A DNA stretch of 64,000 bases, from positions 1 to 64,000 of the IMG/VR virus record IMGVR_UViG_3300023218_000003. One strand, written 5' to 3'. Shown piece by piece: positions 4,478-47,341 of the stretch. A model generated the notes under the pieces. The model was not told the DNA's origin. It made no database searches and saw only the letters and a program-made list of their open reading frames with translations. The stretch comes from a virus. Lineage: Duplodnaviria > Caudoviricetes. Each line of letters opens with the position of its first letter. Position 1 is the stretch's first letter. The position numbers and the translations under genes are program-made.

Positions 4478-5019
4478 TGTCGTCTGTCGATGAATTCTAT
4501 GACACAGTCGAGAAGGGGAAGAAAGACCCGTCACTGTGTTGCGTGAAGTTCTGTCGCAACAGACGCGCAGGGCGACACAGACTGTGCAACGGGCATCGCA
4601 TGGCGAAGTGGCGCGCAGAGAATCCGATACGATCACAGTTCGACACACTGCGCGACAGCGCACGAAGACGACGCATCGAATTCACTGTGACGTTCGAACA
4701 GTTCAAGAAGCTGTGTCACGACACGAACTATCACGAAGAATGCGGCTGCGAATCACACTGTCTTCAGATCGATCGAATCGACGCAGCGCGCGGCTACAGC
4801 ATCGACAACATTCAAGTCATCACAACATCAGAGAACACAGCGAAAGGCAATCGTGAACGACATGCGCGCGAGTATCAGCGCGCGCTTCTGAAGCGCAAAG
4901 GTCTGACAGATGAACAGATCGATGAAATCGTTCCGCGTGACGATGAAGTGTCAGACGCTGACGACTCTGAATTCTACGGCAAGCCGTTGCCCGAAGTCGA
5001 CGATGACTTGCCGTTTTGA
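4477..5019 (+). CDS. HNH/His-Me finger endonuclease-like protein
   Basis: IDRIDAARGYSIDNIQVITTSENTAKG motif, N-terminal Cys/His cluster. Confidence 0.65.
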   Translation: MSSVDEFYDTVEKGKKDPSLCCVKFCRNRRAGRHRLCNGHRMAKWRAENPIRSQFDTLRDSARRRRIEFTVTFEQFKKLCHDTNYHEECGCESHCLQIDRIDAARGYSIDNIQVITTSENTAKGNRERHAREYQRALLKRKGLTDEQIDEIVPRDDEVSDADDSEFYGKPLPEVDDDLPF

Positions 5020-9850: not shown

Positions 9851-10344
9851 AGCCGAAAAGAAGAATCAGAACGAATCAAAGCGGCTGGACTCCGCTTCAG
9901 CCCGCGACGATCGATCGCGCGTCACTGAATCGAACGATCGATGATCTGCGCAAGAAAGCGAAGCTGTCGAGAAGCGAAGCAGAAGAACAAGCGAAGCGTG
10001 CGCTTGGTCAGGAAATCTGGCGCAACAACATCTATCAAGTCAACGTCACGCGATACGAACCGATGGCTGAAGGGATGCCGCAGCTTGTGCATCTGTCGAT
10101 TCGTCGACGCGATCGACAAGTCATCAAAGACTGGCGCGATATGCAGCGCATCAAGAATCAGCTTGTCGGCGAAGAATGCGAAGGCGTCGAACTGTATCCC
10201 GCCGAGTCGCGACTTGTCGACACAGCGAATCAATTTCATCTGTGGTGCTTCGATTCAGAAGACTTCAGATTCCCTTTCGGCTTCAGCGAACGTCTTGTCA
10301 CTGACGACGTTGAAATCGGAGACAGCAAGCAGCGCAAGCTGTGA
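9847..10344 (+). CDS. Conserved phage protein (DUF7694-like)
   Basis: HLSIRR..DWRDMQRIKN..ELYPAESRLVDTANQFHLW. Confidence 0.6.
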   Translation: MKPKRRIRTNQSGWTPLQPATIDRASLNRTIDDLRKKAKLSRSEAEEQAKRALGQEIWRNNIYQVNVTRYEPMAEGMPQLVHLSIRRRDRQVIKDWRDMQRIKNQLVGEECEGVELYPAESRLVDTANQFHLWCFDSEDFRFPFGFSERLVTDDVEIGDSKQRKL

Positions 10345-10363
10345 ACATCAACAACAGAACAAC

Positions 10364-10663
10364 ATGGCAAAAAAATTCATGATCACAATCGGTCCCGCGA
10401 CTCTGCTTCAAGCAGCAGCAGCAGTCGAAGACATCGATTTCGACGTTCGTCTTCTTGAAGAAAAGAAGCACGTCAGCAAGAAGCAGAAGCGTGTCATCGG
10501 TCGCGTCGGTCGTGTCACTGCTGAACACGTGAAGCAGACGAACGAACTGATCAGTCAGGGCAAGTCTGACATTCAGATCGCGAAGGCGATCGGGATCGGC
10601 AAGTCGACTGCGAACGCAATCAGAAATGGTCTGTATGATCATCTGCTTGAAGCGGAGAAATAG
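10364..10663 (+). CDS. HTH DNA-binding protein
   Basis: QGKSDIQIAKAIGIGKSTANAI C-terminal HTH. Confidence 0.65.
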   Translation: MAKKFMITIGPATLLQAAAAVEDIDFDVRLLEEKKHVSKKQKRVIGRVGRVTAEHVKQTNELISQGKSDIQIAKAIGIGKSTANAIRNGLYDHLLEAEK

Positions 10664-12541: not shown

Positions 12542-12778
12542 ATGTCGAATACTGTAGAACGCGACCCAAGAAACGACCCACGAACGAGCGATGTGGTCGA
12601 GCGCATCAGCACGACGTCGGGCAACCCGCTGCGACGCATCGTCGTCATGCGGGACGGGATGCAAGTCTTCTACAAGACAAGCGTCGACGGCGACGTGCTG
12701 AAGTGCTGGGTCATGACTTGGCGCGAATGGGCAATCGACTGCGACGTCAAGCAGATCGGCGATCAGATTGTCGAATAG
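12542..12778 (+). CDS. Hypothetical protein
   Basis: ORF ending in TAG. Confidence 0.55.
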   Translation: MSNTVERDPRNDPRTSDVVERISTTSGNPLRRIVVMRDGMQVFYKTSVDGDVLKCWVMTWREWAIDCDVKQIGDQIVE

Positions 12779-12931
12779 ATCGCTGTTGCGCGTTTCAAGA
12801 ATGCGCTATATTTACGAACGCACGTGCGACGGATTTTCATTCTGTTGTTCGTGACATCGATGATGACAACGGCAGCGCGTCGGCGCTTTTGTGAGTCGGC
12901 GCGCTGCTTCATCAACAACAACAGTGAAGAC

Positions 12932-13555
12932 ATGAATCGAAACGATATTGAAAGACTGATGCGCGCAGAACTTCGCGAGAAAGCACAGCGCAAGCGCACG
13001 CTTCAAGAAATGCAGCAGCACGCTGATCAGATTTCGCAGTCGTTTTCGACAGCAGCAGGATCGTTCTTCACATCGTCTTCATACTTTTCTGGCAGCAACA
13101 ACACACACACACAATCCCGGCACATGAACTTCGAACAGATCATCAACATCATCAGCGTCGCGACAGTCGTCTTCACGATCTGTCTGATCGTTGCTGCAAT
13201 CGGCTTCAGAATTCTTCCGCGACTCGCGACGCGCCCGCCGTGGTGGTTGTCGAGACGTGCGAAGAACTTCTTGGGACGTTTCGTCGGATACGGCGAATGC
13301 AAGTGCTGCGGCGACACGTGGAACTGGAAGAAAGCGCACACGACTGAAATCGTCGACGCTGACGGTGAAGTTCGCGGCGGCGTCTTCCCGCTGTGTGAAG
13401 ATTGCTGGCACGATCTTGCGATTCCCGAAGAACGCGAACCCTACTATCACAAGCTGTTCGATGAATGGATGAAAGAAGCGCCGCATCACGTGCGCATTCG
13501 CATCGAACAAGAAGATCGCCCGAAAGCGATCATGGCAGTTCAGAACGGCAACTGA
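12932..13555 (+). CDS. Membrane protein with Cys motifs (true start possibly 13124)
   Basis: TM segment IINIISVATVVFTICLIVAAIGF, CKCC and CEDC; internal A/C-rich leader before ATG 13124. Confidence 0.5.
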   Translation: MNRNDIERLMRAELREKAQRKRTLQEMQQHADQISQSFSTAAGSFFTSSSYFSGSNNTHTQSRHMNFEQIINIISVATVVFTICLIVAAIGFRILPRLATRPPWWLSRRAKNFLGRFVGYGECKCCGDTWNWKKAHTTEIVDADGEVRGGVFPLCEDCWHDLAIPEEREPYYHKLFDEWMKEAPHHVRIRIEQEDRPKAIMAVQNGN

Positions 13556-14216: not shown

Positions 14217-14470
14217 CACTGACAGAAAAACTGATCGCGATCGCGATCGTCGTCTTCATGTGTGTGATCGCTGCTGCGATCGGCGGCTTCATCGTCTTCG
14301 TGAACATGCACGAAATCGTCATCTATCTTGACGACGAACAACGCGACGACATCGAAGAAGTGAATCAACTGCATCGCGAACACGCGCAAGCGTATCGCGC
14401 AAGAACTGAAGAACATGAAGACGACACTGATCACAGCGCTGCTGATGACGTGCGCACTGACGCACGCTGA
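14213..14470 (+). CDS. Small membrane protein
   Basis: Hydrophobic LIAIAIVVFMCVIAAAIGGFIVFV. Confidence 0.55.
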   Translation: MTLTEKLIAIAIVVFMCVIAAAIGGFIVFVNMHEIVIYLDDEQRDDIEEVNQLHREHAQAYRARTEEHEDDTDHSAADDVRTDAR

Positions 14471-14702
14471 ACACGAAGAAGACGAAGTGCAGACTGACAG
14501 TCGCGGTCGCGAACTGCCCGTGCTGATGCCGAAGCACGTCGACGAAGACGGGCACGCAGCGACACACGCAGACATGATCGATCCGCTGCACGCTGCGTCG
14601 CTGCTGTTCCCTGACGATCTGATCGAACAGATCGAATGCGAACACGAAGCTGAAGAATCGCAACGCAGACAGCGTCGCTTCAGACTCAACACGAAGAAAT
14701 GA
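14415..14702 (+). CDS. Putative secreted acidic protein
   Basis: Signal-peptide-like MKTTLITALLMTCALTHA. Confidence 0.5.
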   Translation: MKTTLITALLMTCALTHAEHEEDEVQTDSRGRELPVLMPKHVDEDGHAATHADMIDPLHAASLLFPDDLIEQIECEHEAEESQRRQRRFRLNTKK

Positions 14703-14707
14703 CTTTC

Positions 14708-14779
14708 GCGCACGTGGCTGACTGGTAAAGCGATCGACTCTAAATCGACGACATGCGGGTTCGAATCCCGCCGTGCGCA
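14708..14779 (+). tRNA. Amber suppressor tRNA, anticodon CUA (no encoded CCA)
   Basis: Acceptor GCGCACG/CGTGCGC, D arm GCTG-ACTGGTA-AAGC, anticodon loop CT-CTA-AA (CTA 14740-14742), T arm GCGGG-TTCGAAT-CCCGC, discriminator A. Confidence 0.88.
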
Positions 14780-14805: not shown

Positions 14806-15069
14806 ATGAAGAAGAACACGTTCAAGCATCAGCTTGGAAAAGAAGCAAGATCGAAGACGACGAAGCTGAAAGGCATTCTGACAGCGCGCAGCGAAAATCT
14901 GTATGGCTGCAATCGATACTTCGTTCAGCCGCCAGTCGACAAAGATCAGAAACTTCCCGATGGCTGGTGGCACGACGAAGACGACATCGAAGTCATCGGC
15001 GACGGCGTCGACGCGAAGCGCAGCGAAGACAAGAATCAGAACGGCGGGCCGATCAGCAAGTCGAAATAG
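14806..15069 (+). CDS. Conserved small phage protein
   Basis: KGILTAR..LYGCNRYFVQPPVDKD..PDGWW.DE pattern. Confidence 0.65.
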   Translation: MKKNTFKHQLGKEARSKTTKLKGILTARSENLYGCNRYFVQPPVDKDQKLPDGWWHDEDDIEVIGDGVDAKRSEDKNQNGGPISKSK

Positions 15070-23873: not shown

Positions 23874-24241
23874 AACGAATCATGAACAACGAACTGAAAG
23901 CACAGCTTCAAGCAGTGCGCGCAGACATTCGCGCGCTTGAACTTCAACTGAAGGCGATCGAAGCGCAGAAAGCACAGCGCATCTTCATGACAGCGTGTCA
24001 GCGAATGCGTGCGCGCAAAGCGTATCGCGACGCGATCAAGATCAGAAAGCATCGCATTGCTGCACTTCGCGGCAGAATCGACATGCTTGAAGAACAGATC
24101 GGCGGCGCAGTCATTCACGCATTCGAACAGGGTGCAGACTTCGGCGAGAAGAACGAAGCAGAGTATCGCGCGACAGGGAACCCGCTTGATTCGACAAGCA
24201 CACGCGCGATCAAGCACGCACAGCAGATCGAAGGACTATGA
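23870..24241 (+). CDS. Hypothetical coiled-coil protein
   Basis: ATGA overlap with previous gene. Confidence 0.55.
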   Translation: MKRIMNNELKAQLQAVRADIRALELQLKAIEAQKAQRIFMTACQRMRARKAYRDAIKIRKHRIAALRGRIDMLEEQIGGAVIHAFEQGADFGEKNEAEYRATGNPLDSTSTRAIKHAQQIEGL

Positions 24242-24567
24242 ACACAGAAGCAATCATCATCGTGTCAGCAGTGCTGACGTTCGCAACGCTGTTGCTGATC
24301 GCTGTCATCGCGGTCGTCGACTATGTGCGACGCAGTCGAAGCGAAGCGAAGCGACGAATCCCGAAAGCGGGCGAAACGTGGATCAGTGGCGACGAAGACG
24401 GTTCGCCGTGGTATGTGTCGCCGCAGCGACAGTGGACAGTCACAGTGATCGACGTGCGTGACGACTGGGTTCGCTACAAGTTCGACGGCAAGAACTGCTT
24501 GTTTCAAGATGAACGTCTGCCGATCGATCGCTTCTTGTCAGTTTACAAGCTGAAGACTGTCGACTAG
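24238..24567 (+). CDS. Membrane-anchored hypothetical protein
   Basis: N-terminal TM helix; ends in TAG. Confidence 0.55.
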   Translation: MNTEAIIIVSAVLTFATLLLIAVIAVVDYVRRSRSEAKRRIPKAGETWISGDEDGSPWYVSPQRQWTVTVIDVRDDWVRYKFDGKNCLFQDERLPIDRFLSVYKLKTVD

Positions 24568-26446: not shown

Positions 26447-26632
26447 ATGACAGAAGAATACGATCTGAACTACAGAATCGAAGAAGCAGCATCAGTCGCT
26501 GACGGCACTGAAGCAGAAGTCTTCTTCACGCAAGTCGCGACGTTCATGAAACAGTTCGCAGACAACGGCGGCTTCACACATCGCTTCGAACGCGAAGCAG
26601 AAGTCGTGAAGCATCATTCTGCGCCAGTGTAG
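26447..26632 (+). CDS. Hypothetical protein (frame stays open past TAG to TGA 26824)
   Basis: A/C-rich leader; 63 further sense codons after TAG. Confidence 0.5.
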   Translation: MTEEYDLNYRIEEAASVADGTEAEVFFTQVATFMKQFADNGGFTHRFEREAEVVKHHSAPV

Positions 26633-26934
26633 CAGCAGACGCAACTTCACTTTGTCGGCATCGGTCTGCCGCAAGGCGACGTGATCATCATGACGCGACA
26701 CGGACATCCGATGCGCTTCTATTCTCGCGAAGCAGTCGTCGGCTACATCGAAGCGAACGCTGATCGAATGATTCATTCGGGCTTGTTTCACGTCACGAAC
26801 GGACACGCAACGCAGATCGTCTGAAAAAAGTTTCGACTACATAGTGCGCTGTAGTGCGCACGTGTGCGCTGTCTTCATCAGCGCGCAGATTTCGTCTGGA
26901 CGAACTGTCATCGTCGACAGTATCTTGCCGCTGC

Positions 26935-28500
26935 ATGGACGACGACGAAATCGAAGAATTCTACGGCAGCGCGTTTCGCACACTTGTCGAGAAAGCGCGC
27001 AGAAACTATCTTGCGTTCTACTCGCTGTTCGCGTTGCGACCCGACAACCCGAAGATCGTCGGCGACTTTCAAGACGTCATCTGCAACAAAGTTCAGCGCG
27101 TGCTTGAACACGTCGACAGCAACAGACAGACGACGTCAGCGCCGCCGCAGCACGGCAAGTCTGACGCGATCGTGAAGACAGCAGTGCCGTGGGCGATGGG
27201 TCGATTCCCCGGCATTCAGATCGGTCTTGCTGCATGGGACTTCCCGCTTGTCGAAGAACTGTCGACAGAAGCGAAGTCGATCGCAATGCATCCGTGGTAT
27301 CGTCTCGTTTTCCCTGATCTTGAAATAGAACAGAACATCAATCGAATCGTGAACTGGAGCGTCACGAACGGCAGTCGAATGCGTTCAGTGTCGCGCGGTC
27401 GATCGCTTGTCGGTCGACGTGTCGACTGGTTCATCGGCGATGACTTGTATCCGAATCGTGAAGCAGTCGAACGAAAGACGATGCGTGCGAAAGTCAGAAA
27501 ATGGTTCTTGTCCGACTGTCTTCAGCGACTGTCGCCGAACGCGATCGTCTGGCTTCTAGGCACGCGCTGGCATCCCGAAGACTTGTGCGGCTATCTGCAC
27601 AGCGACGAATATGTGAAAGACGTCGAAGCGTCAGGTGAAGTCGCTGAACTGTATGAACACTTGAACTTCCCTGCGCTGTGCGACGATGAAGAAAACGATC
27701 CGCTTGGCAGAGAATTCGGCGAAGCGCTGTGTCCGATGATGGGACGTGACGAAAGCTTTTTGAAGGGCAAGCGCGCGTCGATGCCGTCATACGAATGGAA
27801 CAGCTTGTTTCAAGGTCGACCGCAGTCGCAGTCTGCTGATCAAGTCGATCTGTCACGTCTGAACTACATCGACGCTGATGAAGTGCCCGTTACTGGGCTG
27901 ACGTGGGCGCGCGGCTGGGACATAGCGACAACAGAAAAGTCGATGAACGATCCGTCAGCAGGCGCGAAGTGCGCATGGCACGCAGAGTCGAAATCGTTCT
28001 ACATCTTCGACATGTTCAACAAGCGTCTTGCGTGGCCGAAGCTGAAGCGTCAGATCATTCGCATCGCGCTTCGTGATCGCGGCATCTGCGCTGACGATCT
28101 TGATGAAGATCAGCTTGATCGACTGCGTCACGTCGCGCGCATCAAGCCCGAAGACATGCTGACTGAAGATGAAGCATTCGAAGACAACGCTGTGCTTCAG
28201 ATCGGTGTCGAGGGCGTCAGCGGCTTCGCAATCGGCTTCAGCGAAGTGCGCGACTGTCTGCGCGGCTTCTGTCGCGTGCGCAAGAAGAACCCGCCGAAGA
28301 ACATCGACAAGCTGACGCGTGCGCTGCCGTGGATGAACTGGATCGACGACGGTCGCGTCTACATCGTGCGCGGCGCATGGAACAAAGATTTCGTCGATCA
28401 GCTTCAGTCGTTCCCTGACGGCGATCACGATGACATGGTCGACGCCGTTTCGATCGCGCGTGAAATGCTGACGAAGAAAGCGATCCCGAAACACGCGTGA
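26935..28500 (+). CDS. Terminase large subunit
   Basis: SAPPQHGKS Walker A, FIGDDL Walker B, GTRWHPEDL, GDHDDMVDA nuclease motif. Confidence 0.92.
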   Translation: MDDDEIEEFYGSAFRTLVEKARRNYLAFYSLFALRPDNPKIVGDFQDVICNKVQRVLEHVDSNRQTTSAPPQHGKSDAIVKTAVPWAMGRFPGIQIGLAAWDFPLVEELSTEAKSIAMHPWYRLVFPDLEIEQNINRIVNWSVTNGSRMRSVSRGRSLVGRRVDWFIGDDLYPNREAVERKTMRAKVRKWFLSDCLQRLSPNAIVWLLGTRWHPEDLCGYLHSDEYVKDVEASGEVAELYEHLNFPALCDDEENDPLGREFGEALCPMMGRDESFLKGKRASMPSYEWNSLFQGRPQSQSADQVDLSRLNYIDADEVPVTGLTWARGWDIATTEKSMNDPSAGAKCAWHAESKSFYIFDMFNKRLAWPKLKRQIIRIALRDRGICADDLDEDQLDRLRHVARIKPEDMLTEDEAFEDNAVLQIGVEGVSGFAIGFSEVRDCLRGFCRVRKKNPPKNIDKLTRALPWMNWIDDGRVYIVRGAWNKDFVDQLQSFPDGDHDDMVDAVSIAREMLTKKAIPKHA

Positions 28501-30645: not shown

Positions 30646-31998
30646 ATGAAGCTTCTGACCTTAGATACACGATCACCGCTTCGCGGTCGCGCTGCACTTC
30701 AAGCTGTTCAGAAAGAACGTCAGTTCATCGAACAGCGTGTTGGCGTGCCGATTCACAAGTTCACTGACTATCGATCGTTCTTGCTTGCTGGCAGCAAGAA
30801 CGTGTGGGCTTCATTTCGCGCGTGTCACTTGACGGCGAACATCTTGCTGTCGACTAAATTCAAAGTCGTGCGCGAAGGCGAAGACGAAGCGCTGACGGGA
30901 ACGCCCGTGAACGGGCTGATGTCGATGCCGAATCGATTCGATTCGTGGGAAGAACTTCTGTATCTGTGGGTCTTTCACTTGAAGCTGACGGGCAACGCAT
31001 ACTGGCTGAAAGACGAACTTGATGGCGCTGATCGACCGCGCGCGATCTATCCGCTTCTGCCGCATCTTGTGACAGTGATCCCGCATCGCACTGACAAGAT
31101 CGCGAAGTATCTATACAAGATCAACGGCGAAGAACTTGAATTCGCGCCCGAAGAAATCATTCACTTCAAGCGACCGCACCCGATGAACTTGCACTTCGGC
31201 ATGGGTGACGTCGAACCGTCGCAGACGCTGTTCAACAATTTCATCAATCGCGGCAGCTACGAAGAAGCGTTCTTGAAGCACGGCGCTATGCCGTCAGGCA
31301 TCATGACATACAAGGGCAGCGAAGAAACGCCCGCGACGCTTGACGACATGGCTGAAGAAGAATGGGGCAAGCTGAAAGACTGGTGGCAAGACGAATACGG
31401 CGGGCGCAAGAACGCGGGCAAGACTGCGTTCGTCACTGGCGAATGGGAATACACGCGACTTGGTCTGACACAGCAAGAAATGTCGTCGATCGAAAACGAG
31501 AAGTGGAGCATCGAACAAATCTTCATCAATCACGGTGTCCCGCTTTCGATCGCAGGCGTTCAGAAAGCTGCGAACTACGCGACAGCGAGACAAGACGAAA
31601 TCAACTTCAGACGATTCGAAATCGTGCCGCTTCTCGACTTGCTTGTCGGCAAGCTGAACGGGTCGGGCGAATTCGTGAAGCTGTTCGATGAACGTCAGCG
31701 CATCGAATACGAACTGTCGGGTCTGATCGACGTCGAACAGGTCTGGAAAGATCACGAAGGTCTGATCAAACACGGCGGCATGACGATGAACGAAATCAGG
31801 GAAAAGATGGGCTTGCAGCCTGTCGACGATCCGTCGCTTGATCAGTTCTTCGTCGATCAGAATCGTGTGCCGCTTGACATGGCTGGCACGACGCCGCCTG
31901 ATGAACTAGGTCTGCGAATGCTTCAAGCGGGATTGCCCGTTGCGCCCGACTACGCGACGCACGATCATTCACGTCACATCGATCTTGACGACGATTGA
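30646..31998 (+). CDS. Portal protein (HK97-like)
   Basis: LTGNAYW, EIIHFK, GAMPSGI, NAGK, GGMTMNEIREKMGL. Confidence 0.9.
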   Translation: MKLLTLDTRSPLRGRAALQAVQKERQFIEQRVGVPIHKFTDYRSFLLAGSKNVWASFRACHLTANILLSTKFKVVREGEDEALTGTPVNGLMSMPNRFDSWEELLYLWVFHLKLTGNAYWLKDELDGADRPRAIYPLLPHLVTVIPHRTDKIAKYLYKINGEELEFAPEEIIHFKRPHPMNLHFGMGDVEPSQTLFNNFINRGSYEEAFLKHGAMPSGIMTYKGSEETPATLDDMAEEEWGKLKDWWQDEYGGRKNAGKTAFVTGEWEYTRLGLTQQEMSSIENEKWSIEQIFINHGVPLSIAGVQKAANYATARQDEINFRRFEIVPLLDLLVGKLNGSGEFVKLFDERQRIEYELSGLIDVEQVWKDHEGLIKHGGMTMNEIREKMGLQPVDDPSLDQFFVDQNRVPLDMAGTTPPDELGLRMLQAGLPVAPDYATHDHSRHIDLDDD

Positions 31999-32021
31999 TA
32001 AACGCTGCATTTCAGACTATC

Positions 32022-32765
32022 ATGTCAGACGCGCAACAATCAGAAACTAAAGTGACGACGCAGCAGCTAGGGAAACGCGTCGGCGAACTTGAAGTCGACG
32101 TCAAGAATCTGACGAAGTCAGTCGGTGATCTTTCGACTGTTGCAGCATCGACACAGCAACAAGTGAACATGCTGACGCAAGGTCAGACTGCGCAAAGCGA
32201 AAAACTTGATCGTCTTCTTGCACGTACTGCTGGCGGCGAAGCGACGAAGGGAATGATCCCAGTGTCGTATGTCACATGGGGAATCGGCGCGTTTCTGACG
32301 CTTGCTGGACTCGGTCTTTCGATCACGACGATCGGCGGCGCAGTCGTCTTGTTCGCAGTGAACAGCGGCGACAAGCAGTCATCTGCGAAGATCGAATCGA
32401 TCAGCAAGCTTGAACGCGCACACATCGATCACGTGAATGAAACGATCGATCTGCGCGTCGCTACTGTCGAAGACGAAATCAACGAGAACACAGCGAACGT
32501 CGAACGCATCGATCACGAATACCTGCCGACGACACAGTTCGATCGTTTCATCGATACTGAATTCTTGCCGCTTCGTGATCGAATGACAGAAGCAGAAGTG
32601 AAAGAAGCACGCAACGACGAACGCATTCAGAAGACGTGGGAAGAAATCGTCGATCACGAAGACGAACTTGATCATCCGATTCGTCAGACTTACGAACTTG
32701 AAGGTCTGAAGAAGCTGCTTGATGAACAGCGCAGTCACGATCACGAAAGCGCTGGAAACGAATAG
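32022..32765 (+). CDS. Membrane protein with coiled coils
   Basis: Central hydrophobic segment flanked by heptad-rich regions. Confidence 0.55.
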   Translation: MSDAQQSETKVTTQQLGKRVGELEVDVKNLTKSVGDLSTVAASTQQQVNMLTQGQTAQSEKLDRLLARTAGGEATKGMIPVSYVTWGIGAFLTLAGLGLSITTIGGAVVLFAVNSGDKQSSAKIESISKLERAHIDHVNETIDLRVATVEDEINENTANVERIDHEYLPTTQFDRFIDTEFLPLRDRMTEAEVKEARNDERIQKTWEEIVDHEDELDHPIRQTYELEGLKKLLDEQRSHDHESAGNE

Positions 32766-46654: not shown

Positions 46655-47341
46655 ATGGCGAAGAAATACGCAGACAAAGAAACTGAACGCGCAGTCGAAG
46701 AAGAAGACGCGAAGCTTGATCAGACTTCGAACAAGCTTGGGCTTTTCGCAGACGTCGACGATGATGGTGAAGAAGTGATCGACGACGAACGCGAACGCGG
46801 AACAGAACGCGACATGCTGGGAGTCGCAGTCAAGGTGCATCGATTCAAGATTCGCCCGCTGACTCTGTCCGCGTTCGCGTTGCTGCGACAGATCGACAGC
46901 GCGTTTCTGACGTTCACGCCGATTCTGTCGAACGACGATCGCGATGCGCTTCTTGAACTTGCAGAGAAGCCGAAGCGCAGCGACGTCGAAGAAAAGCGAT
47001 ACATGAAGCTGATCGCGATGGCGAAAGCTGAAAGCGAAATGATTCAGAATCCATACTTGGAGACGCTGAAGTTCATGGCGCTGATGACTGTCGAAGTCGA
47101 CGAAGAAGAAGCTGAAGACTTGGCATTCGCAGACGACAACGGGCGCGCACTGCGTCGCGCTGCTTTCGAATTCGGCGAACAGATCGAAGCAAACGAAATG
47201 GACGATCTGACGACTGCGATCGGCATTGCAGTCGGAGAAGCGCAACAGTCGAAAGTCGTGCCTACTAAAAAAAAGGGTCCGCGTCACACAGCAGTGAAGA
47301 AAAAGGCAACGCGTTCGCGCCGACGTTCATTGCGCAAATAG
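46655..47341 (+). CDS. Tail assembly chaperone (G-like)
   Basis: Acidic protein upstream of tape measure with slippery AAAAAAG at 47269-47275. Confidence 0.75.
   Translation: MAKKYADKETERAVEEEDAKLDQTSNKLGLFADVDDDGEEVIDDERERGTERDMLGVAVKVHRFKIRPLTLSAFALLRQIDSAFLTFTPILSNDDRDALLELAEKPKRSDVEEKRYMKLIAMAKAESEMIQNPYLETLKFMALMTVEVDEEEAEDLAFADDNGRALRRAAFEFGEQIEANEMDDLTTAIGIAVGEAQQSKVVPTKKKGPRHTAVKKKATRSRRRSLRK

Follow-up and report, generated by a model that had tools for sequence, protein, structure and literature searches.

Intact tRNA Gene with a CUA Anticodon

Positions 14708–14779 (+) of the window, the whole 64,000-nucleotide stretch of phage DNA analyzed here, hold a genuine and structurally intact phage tRNA gene with the anticodon CUA, and the phage that carries it uses the standard genetic code. 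The tRNA is of the amber-suppressor type, its decoding of UAG being predicted from the anticodon. We propose that it derives from a phage tRNA-Lys(CUU) and would insert lysine at UAG, giving partial read-through at low cost with one purposeful-looking target, TAG 26630; we would give this reading an even chance.

The original prediction had read from the sequence a complete cloverleaf with the loop CT-CTA-AA, G1:C72, A73, a 5-nt variable loop, and a 27:43 mismatch, and had named ARAGORN as a check. Run on the whole window, ARAGORN calls one tRNA, at 14708–14779 (+) with the anticodon CTA, and Rfam RF00005 matches the same positions with 64.1 bits against a gathering score of 29 (E 1.3e-11, model 1–71/71). 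All of the predicted elements are present by ARAGORN and Rfam, with a G13/A22 mismatch in addition. The full-length RF00005 score places the gene in the canonical class I elongator type, and ARAGORN concurs. The locus comprises the following features:

14415–14702, +, 95-aa ORF upstream of the tRNA, its TGA stop 5 nt before the tRNA (ORF, sequence)
14708–14779, +, tRNA gene of the CUA amber suppressor type, class I, A73, no encoded CCA (ARAGORN, Rfam)
14740–14742, +, anticodon CTA in the loop C-T-CTA-A-A, with A36-A37-A38 (ARAGORN, sequence, Rfam alignment)
14806–15069, +, 87-aa gene (phrog_16275), ~26–27 nt 3' of the tRNA, TAG-ended; read-through would add 8 codons

The acceptor stem has 7 bp, G1:C72 to G7:C66, followed by the discriminator A73 (Rfam alignment and sequence); the D-arm combines a 7-nt D-loop bearing G18G19 with the G13/A22 mismatch, and U8 is present. 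The anticodon stem contains the A27/C43 mismatch and closes with A31:U39, the variable loop is the 5-nt GACAU, and the T-loop is TTCGAAT. In the Rfam alignment, the tertiary-core nucleotides U8, A14, G18G19, U33, G53-T54-T55-C56, and A58 are kept, while positions C15/U48 form an unusual Levitt pair. The anticodon arm has what an amber suppressor needs: its 7-nt loop presents CUA after U33, with a purine following at position 37. Thermodynamic folding of the sequence without modifications recovers the cloverleaf in part, as is common for tRNAs.

ARAGORN labels the gene "Pyl." The tRNAPyl fold has a 3-nt variable loop, a 6-bp anticodon stem, and a small D-loop that lacks G18G19. The cloverleaf of the window tRNA is canonical: its variable loop has 5 nt and its anticodon stem 5 bp, G18G19 is present, and the T-loop reads TTCGAAT. 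We therefore take the label as a naming convention for CUA. With only the anticodon and this default name in its favor and the canonical structure against it, the identification as a pyrrolysine tRNA has a negligible probability.

The tRNA gene is embedded in a string of co-directional genes, among the early/middle genes; no sigma-70-like promoter or above-chance terminator was found around it, and Rfam identified no other RNA family beside it. A search of the complete 74,591-bp record returned it as the only tRNA, which extends to the entire record what had been claimed for the window. The record is a tailed phage, linear (IMG/VR), 85% complete (CheckV), and of 54% GC, with all credible genes on the + strand and no integrase. 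The window includes genes for a helicase, a RecA-like protein, small and large terminase subunits, portal, prohead protease, capsid, tape measure, a fibre with a depolymerase domain, a GT2, a sulfotransferase, and an AAA ATPase, and the record encodes a DnaB-like helicase and a family A polymerase beyond it. That 981-aa DNA polymerase (L169:6296–9241; genome 69296–72241) has a weak N-terminal match to the uracil-DNA-glycosylase superfamily (E 7.7e-5), just under the Pfam cut-off and preceding the 3'-5' exonuclease domain.

We found no nucleotide similarity to deposited phages. Isolated phages have portal proteins with no more than 27% identity to this one, too little to point to a host; an Atlas search with the sulfotransferase gave no clue to the host. 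The closest relatives are the IMG/VR fragments L002–L004, whose terminases are 88–93% identical and none of which spans the tRNA region. Exact and relaxed tRNA patterns retrieved no relative carrying the tRNA from viral contigs, metagenomes, or genomes, and the flanking proteins retrieved no relative of the locus from viral contigs. The 87-aa neighbor, searched in metagenomes, led to two unrelated phages of normal composition that lack the tRNA, and the terminase relatives L004–L008 held no informative tRNA. Conservation of the tRNA gene or of its CUA anticodon among relatives thus has no support, a relative covering the locus not having been found.

Standard Genetic Code and Rarity of TAG

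In our gene model, the ~108 ORFs on the + strand end in TGA (92), TAA (9), or TAG (7). Coding density is 0.941 with TAG read as sense and 0.942 under the standard code, and this lack of any gain indicates that the phage is on the standard code. The terL, portal, capsid, tape-measure, and fibre genes are unbroken under code 11. Borges et al. (bioRxiv 10.1101/2021.08.26.457843) recognize code 15 by a density increase of more than 10% (contigs of 5–100 kb) together with in-frame TAGs in conserved late genes; here there is neither a density rise nor an in-frame TAG in those late genes. The description of a standard-code phage with a stand-alone CUA tRNA and intact long genes therefore stands, and the seven genes that had been listed as TAG-ended (10663, 12778, 15069, 24567, 26632, 32765, 47341) are exactly those whose TAGs close coding-like frames, 7/68 on the + strand.

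TAG is rare for a reason unrelated to the code. The dinucleotide TA occurs at 0.20 of expectation, a five-fold depletion (CC 0.26, GG 0.43), and TAA and TAG are both at 4–6% of expected in all frames. Trinucleotide counts on the + strand are 68 TAG, 46 TAA, and 1,954 TGA, and off-frame within genes they are 52, 31, and 1,771, respectively. The rarity of TAG follows from this genome-wide TA depletion and hence is not code-specific avoidance; relative to the off-frame background (52 vs. 1,771 TGA), TAG is over-represented as a stop (7/108). The few TAG stops are thus no pointer to recoding.

The oligonucleotide bias is common to the relatives L002–L004. When used as a signature of the host, the TA/CC/GG bias led to phage relatives only, being found in 0 of ~120 sampled cellular loci. 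At the tetranucleotide level, GTAC occurs once (280 expected) and GAGG four times (414 expected) in the whole window (1–64000), TCGA, CGAA, and GATC are 3–4-fold enriched in this 54% GC genome, and Shine-Dalgarno-like GGAG/AGGA strings are near-absent, the leaders being A-rich.

The original prediction had also suggested looking for release factor or aminoacyl-tRNA synthetase (aaRS) genes in the rest of the genome. Six-frame searches of the 74.6-kb record (~85% complete) yielded no match to PF00472, PF00152, or PF00749 (release factor, Lys/Asp/Asn-type class II aaRS, and Glu/Gln-type aaRS, respectively), and neither kind of gene appears among the large ORFs of the record. The suppressor tRNA is accordingly not part of a code-change module that joins it to an aaRS and a release factor.

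Predicted Amino Acid Identity of the Suppressor

The anticodon loop had been placed one change from Tyr, Trp, or Leu. The 5-nt variable loop excludes bacterial Tyr and Leu, as it does Ser, and Trp does not fit A73 and G1:C72. The class-I tRNAs that lie one substitution from CUA are Lys(CUU), Gln(CUG), Glu(CUC), and Trp(CCA), and the best fit among them, Lys(CUU), was missing from the earlier list.

We scanned one genome per species from ~185,000 prokaryote species with an identity skeleton (G1C2G3/C70G71C72, A73, D-loop geometry, loop CU-NNN-AA, 5-nt variable loop, and T-loop) that put no constraint on the anticodon or the stem interiors. The matches listed, at least 123, comprise 85 Lys, 27 Ile, 7 Val, and 4 CAU tRNAs; the Lys members, at least 85, divide into 47 CUU and 38 UUU, and no Gln, Glu, or Trp tRNA is among the matches listed. 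The closest bodies in this set are Lys(CUU), identical at 52/69 positions. A classifier built on the matches listed favors Lys over Ile by 8.2 log-likelihood units, with a cross-validated accuracy of 81%; it is unable to judge the four CAU sequences, and neither this classifier nor the one for phage tRNAs separates a CAU-type (Met/Ile2) body from Lys.

Phage tRNAs were examined in a set of 488 from 37 loci. The modal phage Lys states at 73, 1:72, 2:71, 3:70, and the loop are those of the window tRNA, while phage Gln tRNAs mostly have U1:A72 (G1:C72 in 0/18), phage Glu tRNAs mostly G1:U72, and phage Trp tRNAs G73 and mostly A1:U72. Naive Bayes classification on this set ranks Met and Lys at the top, with 61% accuracy and a bias toward Met that stems from the choice of loci; it correctly calls the Gln-like CUA tRNA of L027 as Gln. 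Two other markers of isotype were discarded: the same D-arm occurs in phage Met, His, Gly, Cys, Val, Lys, and Ile tRNAs, and isotypes could not be told apart by whole-body identity to phage tRNAs.

In E. coli, lysine identity resides in the anticodon, including U35, and in A73; lysine is what several U35-bearing CUA suppressors insert, and an A73-to-G73 change shifts them toward glutamine (PMC9976931). The window tRNA has A73, U35, and the acceptor, D-arm, and loop architecture of bacterial tRNA-Lys; A36 of its CUA anticodon removes one LysRS anticodon determinant. The E. coli glutamine identity set consists of U1:A72, G2:C71, G3:C70, U38, and G73, and conversion of A31:U39 to C31:G39 in vitro lowers lysine acceptance ~100-fold and awakens glutamine acceptance (PMC1483225). 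From this set the window tRNA shares only G3:C70, having G1:C72, C2:G71, A38, and A73. Taken with the cellular and phage comparisons, these features suggest a Lys(CUU)-derived suppressor that would be charged with lysine by the host enzyme, under rules that are those of E. coli and may not be the host's. The phage uses 992 AAG and 439 AAA lysine codons, a preference for AAG that would explain an ancestral tRNA-Lys(CUU).

U35 is also recognized by GlnRS (PMC9976931, PMC1483225), and the tRNA could on that account be a GlnRS substrate, i.e., a Gln-inserting suppressor of the code-15 type in a phage that is a relic or precursor of a TAG-to-Gln lineage. Where phage code differs from that of the host, Borges et al. 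(bioRxiv 10.1101/2021.08.26.457843) describe only TAG-to-Gln and TGA-to-Trp, so that glutamine is the amber reassignment in such cases, and Kienbeck et al. (PMC10879173) predict 180 phage suppressor tRNAs to be 69% Gln, 19% Trp, 10% Ile, and 1% Tyr, with no Lys. The window tRNA, however, lacks U1:A72, G2:C71, U38, and G73, its A73 and A31:U39 favor LysRS over GlnRS in E. coli, and the cellular skeleton matches listed (at least 123) include no Gln tRNA; moreover, GlnRS is absent from many bacteria (PMC9976931). We consider glutamine insertion very improbable.

TAG Stops and Candidate Read-Through

In addition to the gene next to the tRNA, six genes end in TAG, and one of them lies in a segment with a candidate extension:

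9941–10663, +, TAG-ended gene of 240 aa whose weak HTH-like matches fall short of Pfam cut-offs; the 76 codons that follow are non-coding-like
12542–12778, +, ~78-aa gene with TAG 12776, stop-free in frame with the next gene to 13555; the intervening stretch is non-coding-like
24238–24567, +, 109-aa gene, TAG-ended, next stop 3 codons on; absent from L002/L003
26447–26632, +, 61-aa gene with TAG 26630–26632; the homologues in relatives are free-standing, 61–64 aa, and TGA-ended
26593–26932, +, ~340-nt segment with TAG 26630 and its extension; absent from L002/L003
26633–26824, +, 63 in-frame codons after TAG 26630, a candidate read-through extension, ORFan
31995–32765, +, 256-aa gene after the portal gene, TAG-ended
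46655–47341, +, 228-aa gene upstream of the tape-measure gene, TAG-ended; read-through would add 11 codons

In order along the window, read-through at the seven TAG stops would add 76, 258, 8, 3, 63, 64, and 11 codons. At 12776, suppression would give a 337-residue fusion (12542–13555). We scored the 16 codons that follow each stop for their resemblance to coding sequence. After TAG 26630 they score +0.78, above 83% of true in-frame windows, and as high a score is seen in only 2.7% of windows that are intergenic and 0.6% of those off-frame; this is the sole stop among 95 with an extension score of at least 0.6. After the other six TAGs, the 16 codons are non-coding-like (scores of −0.06 to −1.26). 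The extension after TAG 26630 is coding-like from its first codon and contains no ATG, GTG, or TTG for 16 codons (then GTG 26681 and ATG 26690).

TAG 26630 is located between terS and terL, and in the closest relatives the homologous small gene ends in TGA directly at the terminase start. We found no homologue that spans the TAG: the 125-residue product is matched in its first half only, by proteins of 61–64 aa. Read-through at this site is for that reason only suggestive, and we regard TAG 26630 as a candidate. The second half of ORF 26447–26824 has no Pfam domain, no Atlas neighbor, and no confident fold, AlphaFold giving a pLDDT of 38 for the ORF; an impression of a Phd/YefM-like motif in it proved unsupported.

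In-frame continuation into the next ORF occurs after 2/6 TAGs versus 10/89 other stops (p = 0.16), nearby back-up stops after TAG are not enriched, and TAG 32763 is found at the same position in L004 as an ordinary stop. In-frame TAGs that precede gene starts, such as TAG 17724 and TAG 32776, were dismissed as read-through sites, the upstream parts being non-coding-like.

Two segments have no counterpart in L002/L003, 26593–26932 and 24096–24564, and each contains a TAG-ended small ORF; in the former, the C-terminal end of the small gene that precedes terL is replaced as well. The long terL ORF, 26854–28500, starts with GTG 26854; homology with the relatives (MNDDEIEEF) begins at ATG 26935 (MDDDEIEEF), which is thus probably the true start. 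The 110 nt before the start of this homology contain GTGCGC-rich repeats.

Proposed Route to Amber Suppression

We propose that the tRNA most likely arose from a phage tRNA-Lys(CUU) through a single U36-to-A change, an origin favored by its bacterial tRNA-Lys-type body. It lies 5 nt after one gene and ~26–27 nt before the next, and host RNases would thus presumably release it from a polycistronic transcript, with CCA added by a host enzyme. The host lysyl-tRNA synthetase would then charge it, given U35, A73, A31:U39, and the lack of the glutamine determinants U1:A72, G2:C71, U38, and G73, and by the E. coli identity rules lysine would be inserted at UAG in competition with release factor 1. 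The i6A37 modification helps suppressors, and the A36-A37-A38 loop suits the requirement for it.

Partial suppression would be cheap because TA depletion leaves TAG at only 7 gene ends. The outcome would be seven phage proteins with C-terminal extensions of 3 to 258 codons, TAG 26630 being the one purposeful-looking case, with 63 coding-like codons in a lineage-specific segment. Such a course would fit the route put forward by Borges et al. (bioRxiv 10.1101/2021.08.26.457843), in which a rare stop codon permits a suppressor tRNA and then the first in-frame stops. It would depart from that route in two respects: the rarity that they trace to low GC comes here from dinucleotide bias at 54% GC, and lysine takes the place of glutamine as the predicted residue.

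Recurrence and Relation to Known Suppressor tRNAs

When IMG/VR was searched with the Lys skeleton, its anticodon now set to CUA, at least 10 further tRNAs (L170–L179) were returned, mostly on fragments of very large tRNA-rich phages, so the type recurs. In L171 and L176, CUA tRNAs occur as tandem pairs, and most of the tRNAs have C31 opposite G39 or A39, as opposed to A31:U39 in the window. The whole records checked among the carriers (G006–G008) look unrecoded in 3/3 cases, and no clear signal of TAG recoding was found in the other Lys-skeleton CUA phages.

Phages without recoding have been reported to carry suppressor tRNAs before. Borges et al. (bioRxiv 10.1101/2021.08.26.457843) surveyed such tRNAs by phage code and found some in standard-code phages related to recoded ones, and they are likewise present without recoding in phage ctE7s22 and in clade 8 of the Zeta crAss-like phages (PMC12386605). 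The present phage resembles those in having a CUA tRNA (CUA or UCA in theirs), no evident recoding, and a rare matching stop. Those, however, are low-GC gut phages, often with many tRNAs, whereas here a sole tRNA with a Lys-type body occurs in a 54% GC genome that is dominated by TGA through TA depletion; and where the Zeta crAss-like examples have a second stop close after TAG, the back-up stops here are 3 to 258 codons away. The present case is thus set apart by the Lys-type body, the mid-GC, TA-depleted, TGA-dominated genome, the sole tRNA, and one candidate in-frame TAG.

Code 15 phages (crAss-like and Lak; Peters et al., PMC9523058) likewise supply their own amber suppressor tRNA for charging by a host enzyme, as we predict here, but they have many in-frame TAGs in late genes, a density gain of >5–10%, and glutamine as the inserted residue; the window phage gains no density, has at most one candidate in-frame TAG, and has lysine as the predicted residue. 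Further counterparts are the lysine-inserting laboratory amber suppressors of E. coli (Normanly et al. 1990 and McClain et al. 1990, via PMC9976931 and PMC1483225), which are also class-I CUA tRNAs with U35 and A73 recognized by a class II LysRS (a prediction in our case); they are engineered or selected cellular tRNAs, whereas this is a natural phage gene. The theta-ribozyme-associated tRNA-Sup genes of Kienbeck et al. (PMC10879173) are again phage amber suppressors, of Gln, Trp, Ile, and Tyr isotypes in contrast to the Lys type seen here, and they adjoin a ribozyme; no ribozyme accompanies the window tRNA, which is 26 nt from the next ATG and has nothing beside it that Rfam detects.

A more far-reaching interpretation would take the phage as being at the first step of a TAG-to-lysine reassignment, with a Lys-type suppressor fixed, TAG rare by dinucleotide bias, a first in-frame TAG at 26630 in a new accessory ORF (61-aa and 125-aa products), and the Lys-skeleton CUA tRNAs of IMG/VR, at least 10, as a hitherto unrecognized lysine-inserting class. 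We think this improbable; the published surveys compared here report no TAG-to-lysine code change for phages.

A serious rival to any suppressor function is a recent, neutral anticodon mutation: the CUA anticodon could result from a recent U36-to-A change in tRNA-Lys(CUU), or from a minority or assembly variant, with no adaptive role. Such a change would be near-neutral since TAG is so rare in the phage and probably also in the host, and the open frame beyond TAG 26630 would in that case reflect chance, a recent nonsense mutation, or a small gene that begins at a non-canonical codon. The single substitution that separates CUA from Lys(CUU) in an otherwise intact Lys-type body, the presence of TAG at only 7 of ~108 gene ends, the non-coding-like tails of the other six TAGs, and the failure to find a conserved read-through target or a relative with a conserved tRNA all agree with an accident. 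It accounts less well for the retention of every conserved position (64 bits), for Lys-skeleton CUA tRNAs in at least 10 other phage contigs, and for the extension at TAG 26630 having the top score of 95 stops; moreover, whole unrecoded clades retain CUA tRNAs (PMC12386605), which argues for selection in general. On balance, we view the accidental origin as somewhat unlikely.

Three roles had been offered in the original prediction, each of them already put forward in publications on other phages, and they fared differently. Programmed read-through gained one suggestive candidate, TAG 26630, and an early stage of recoding is compatible with the data, while sabotage of host genes found no support. 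The last of these, which PMC12386605 discusses for unrecoded Zeta crAss-like phages together with a step toward recoding, the same ideas as those of the original prediction, would have an early-expressed suppressor extend TAG-ended host proteins and so weaken the host or its anti-phage defences. The location of the tRNA in the early/middle region and the lack of any clearly proven target in the phage are in keeping with it; yet a host with the same TA depletion as the phage would have few TAG-ended genes, and the window shows no connection between the tRNA and any defence or counter-defence gene. We hold a host-directed role to be very unlikely.

It has been proposed that stop-codon recoding starts from phage suppressor tRNAs, and the present case bears on the reasons for which phages without recoding keep them. 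The present genome indicates that TA avoidance at mid GC, and not low GC alone, can make a stop rare enough to tolerate a suppressor, and a Lys-type body, if confirmed, would widen the set of amino acids that phages assign to UAG beyond glutamine. The system is small and tractable, with one tRNA, seven TAG stops, and one concrete, testable read-through candidate, for asking whether such a tRNA acts on phage genes, on the host, or on nothing.

Two very large phages carry an opal (UCA) and an amber (CUA) suppressor tRNA (L021:5562–5636 and L042:2715–2787, respectively) that have the D-arm of the window tRNA, a GA-N-AU variable loop, and a GCGGG T-stem 5' strand, a combination unseen by eye in the other pattern matches listed. 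These shared features may reflect a common body for phage suppressors. In L045, the tRNA at 4544–4616 (−), which ARAGORN calls "tRNA-Stop(tta)," is one nucleotide (U33 to C) from the tRNA-Lys(UUU) of L037; this change shifts the register of the ARAGORN call, and the gene probably encodes a Lys tRNA whose anticodon loop has changed, rather than an ochre suppressor.
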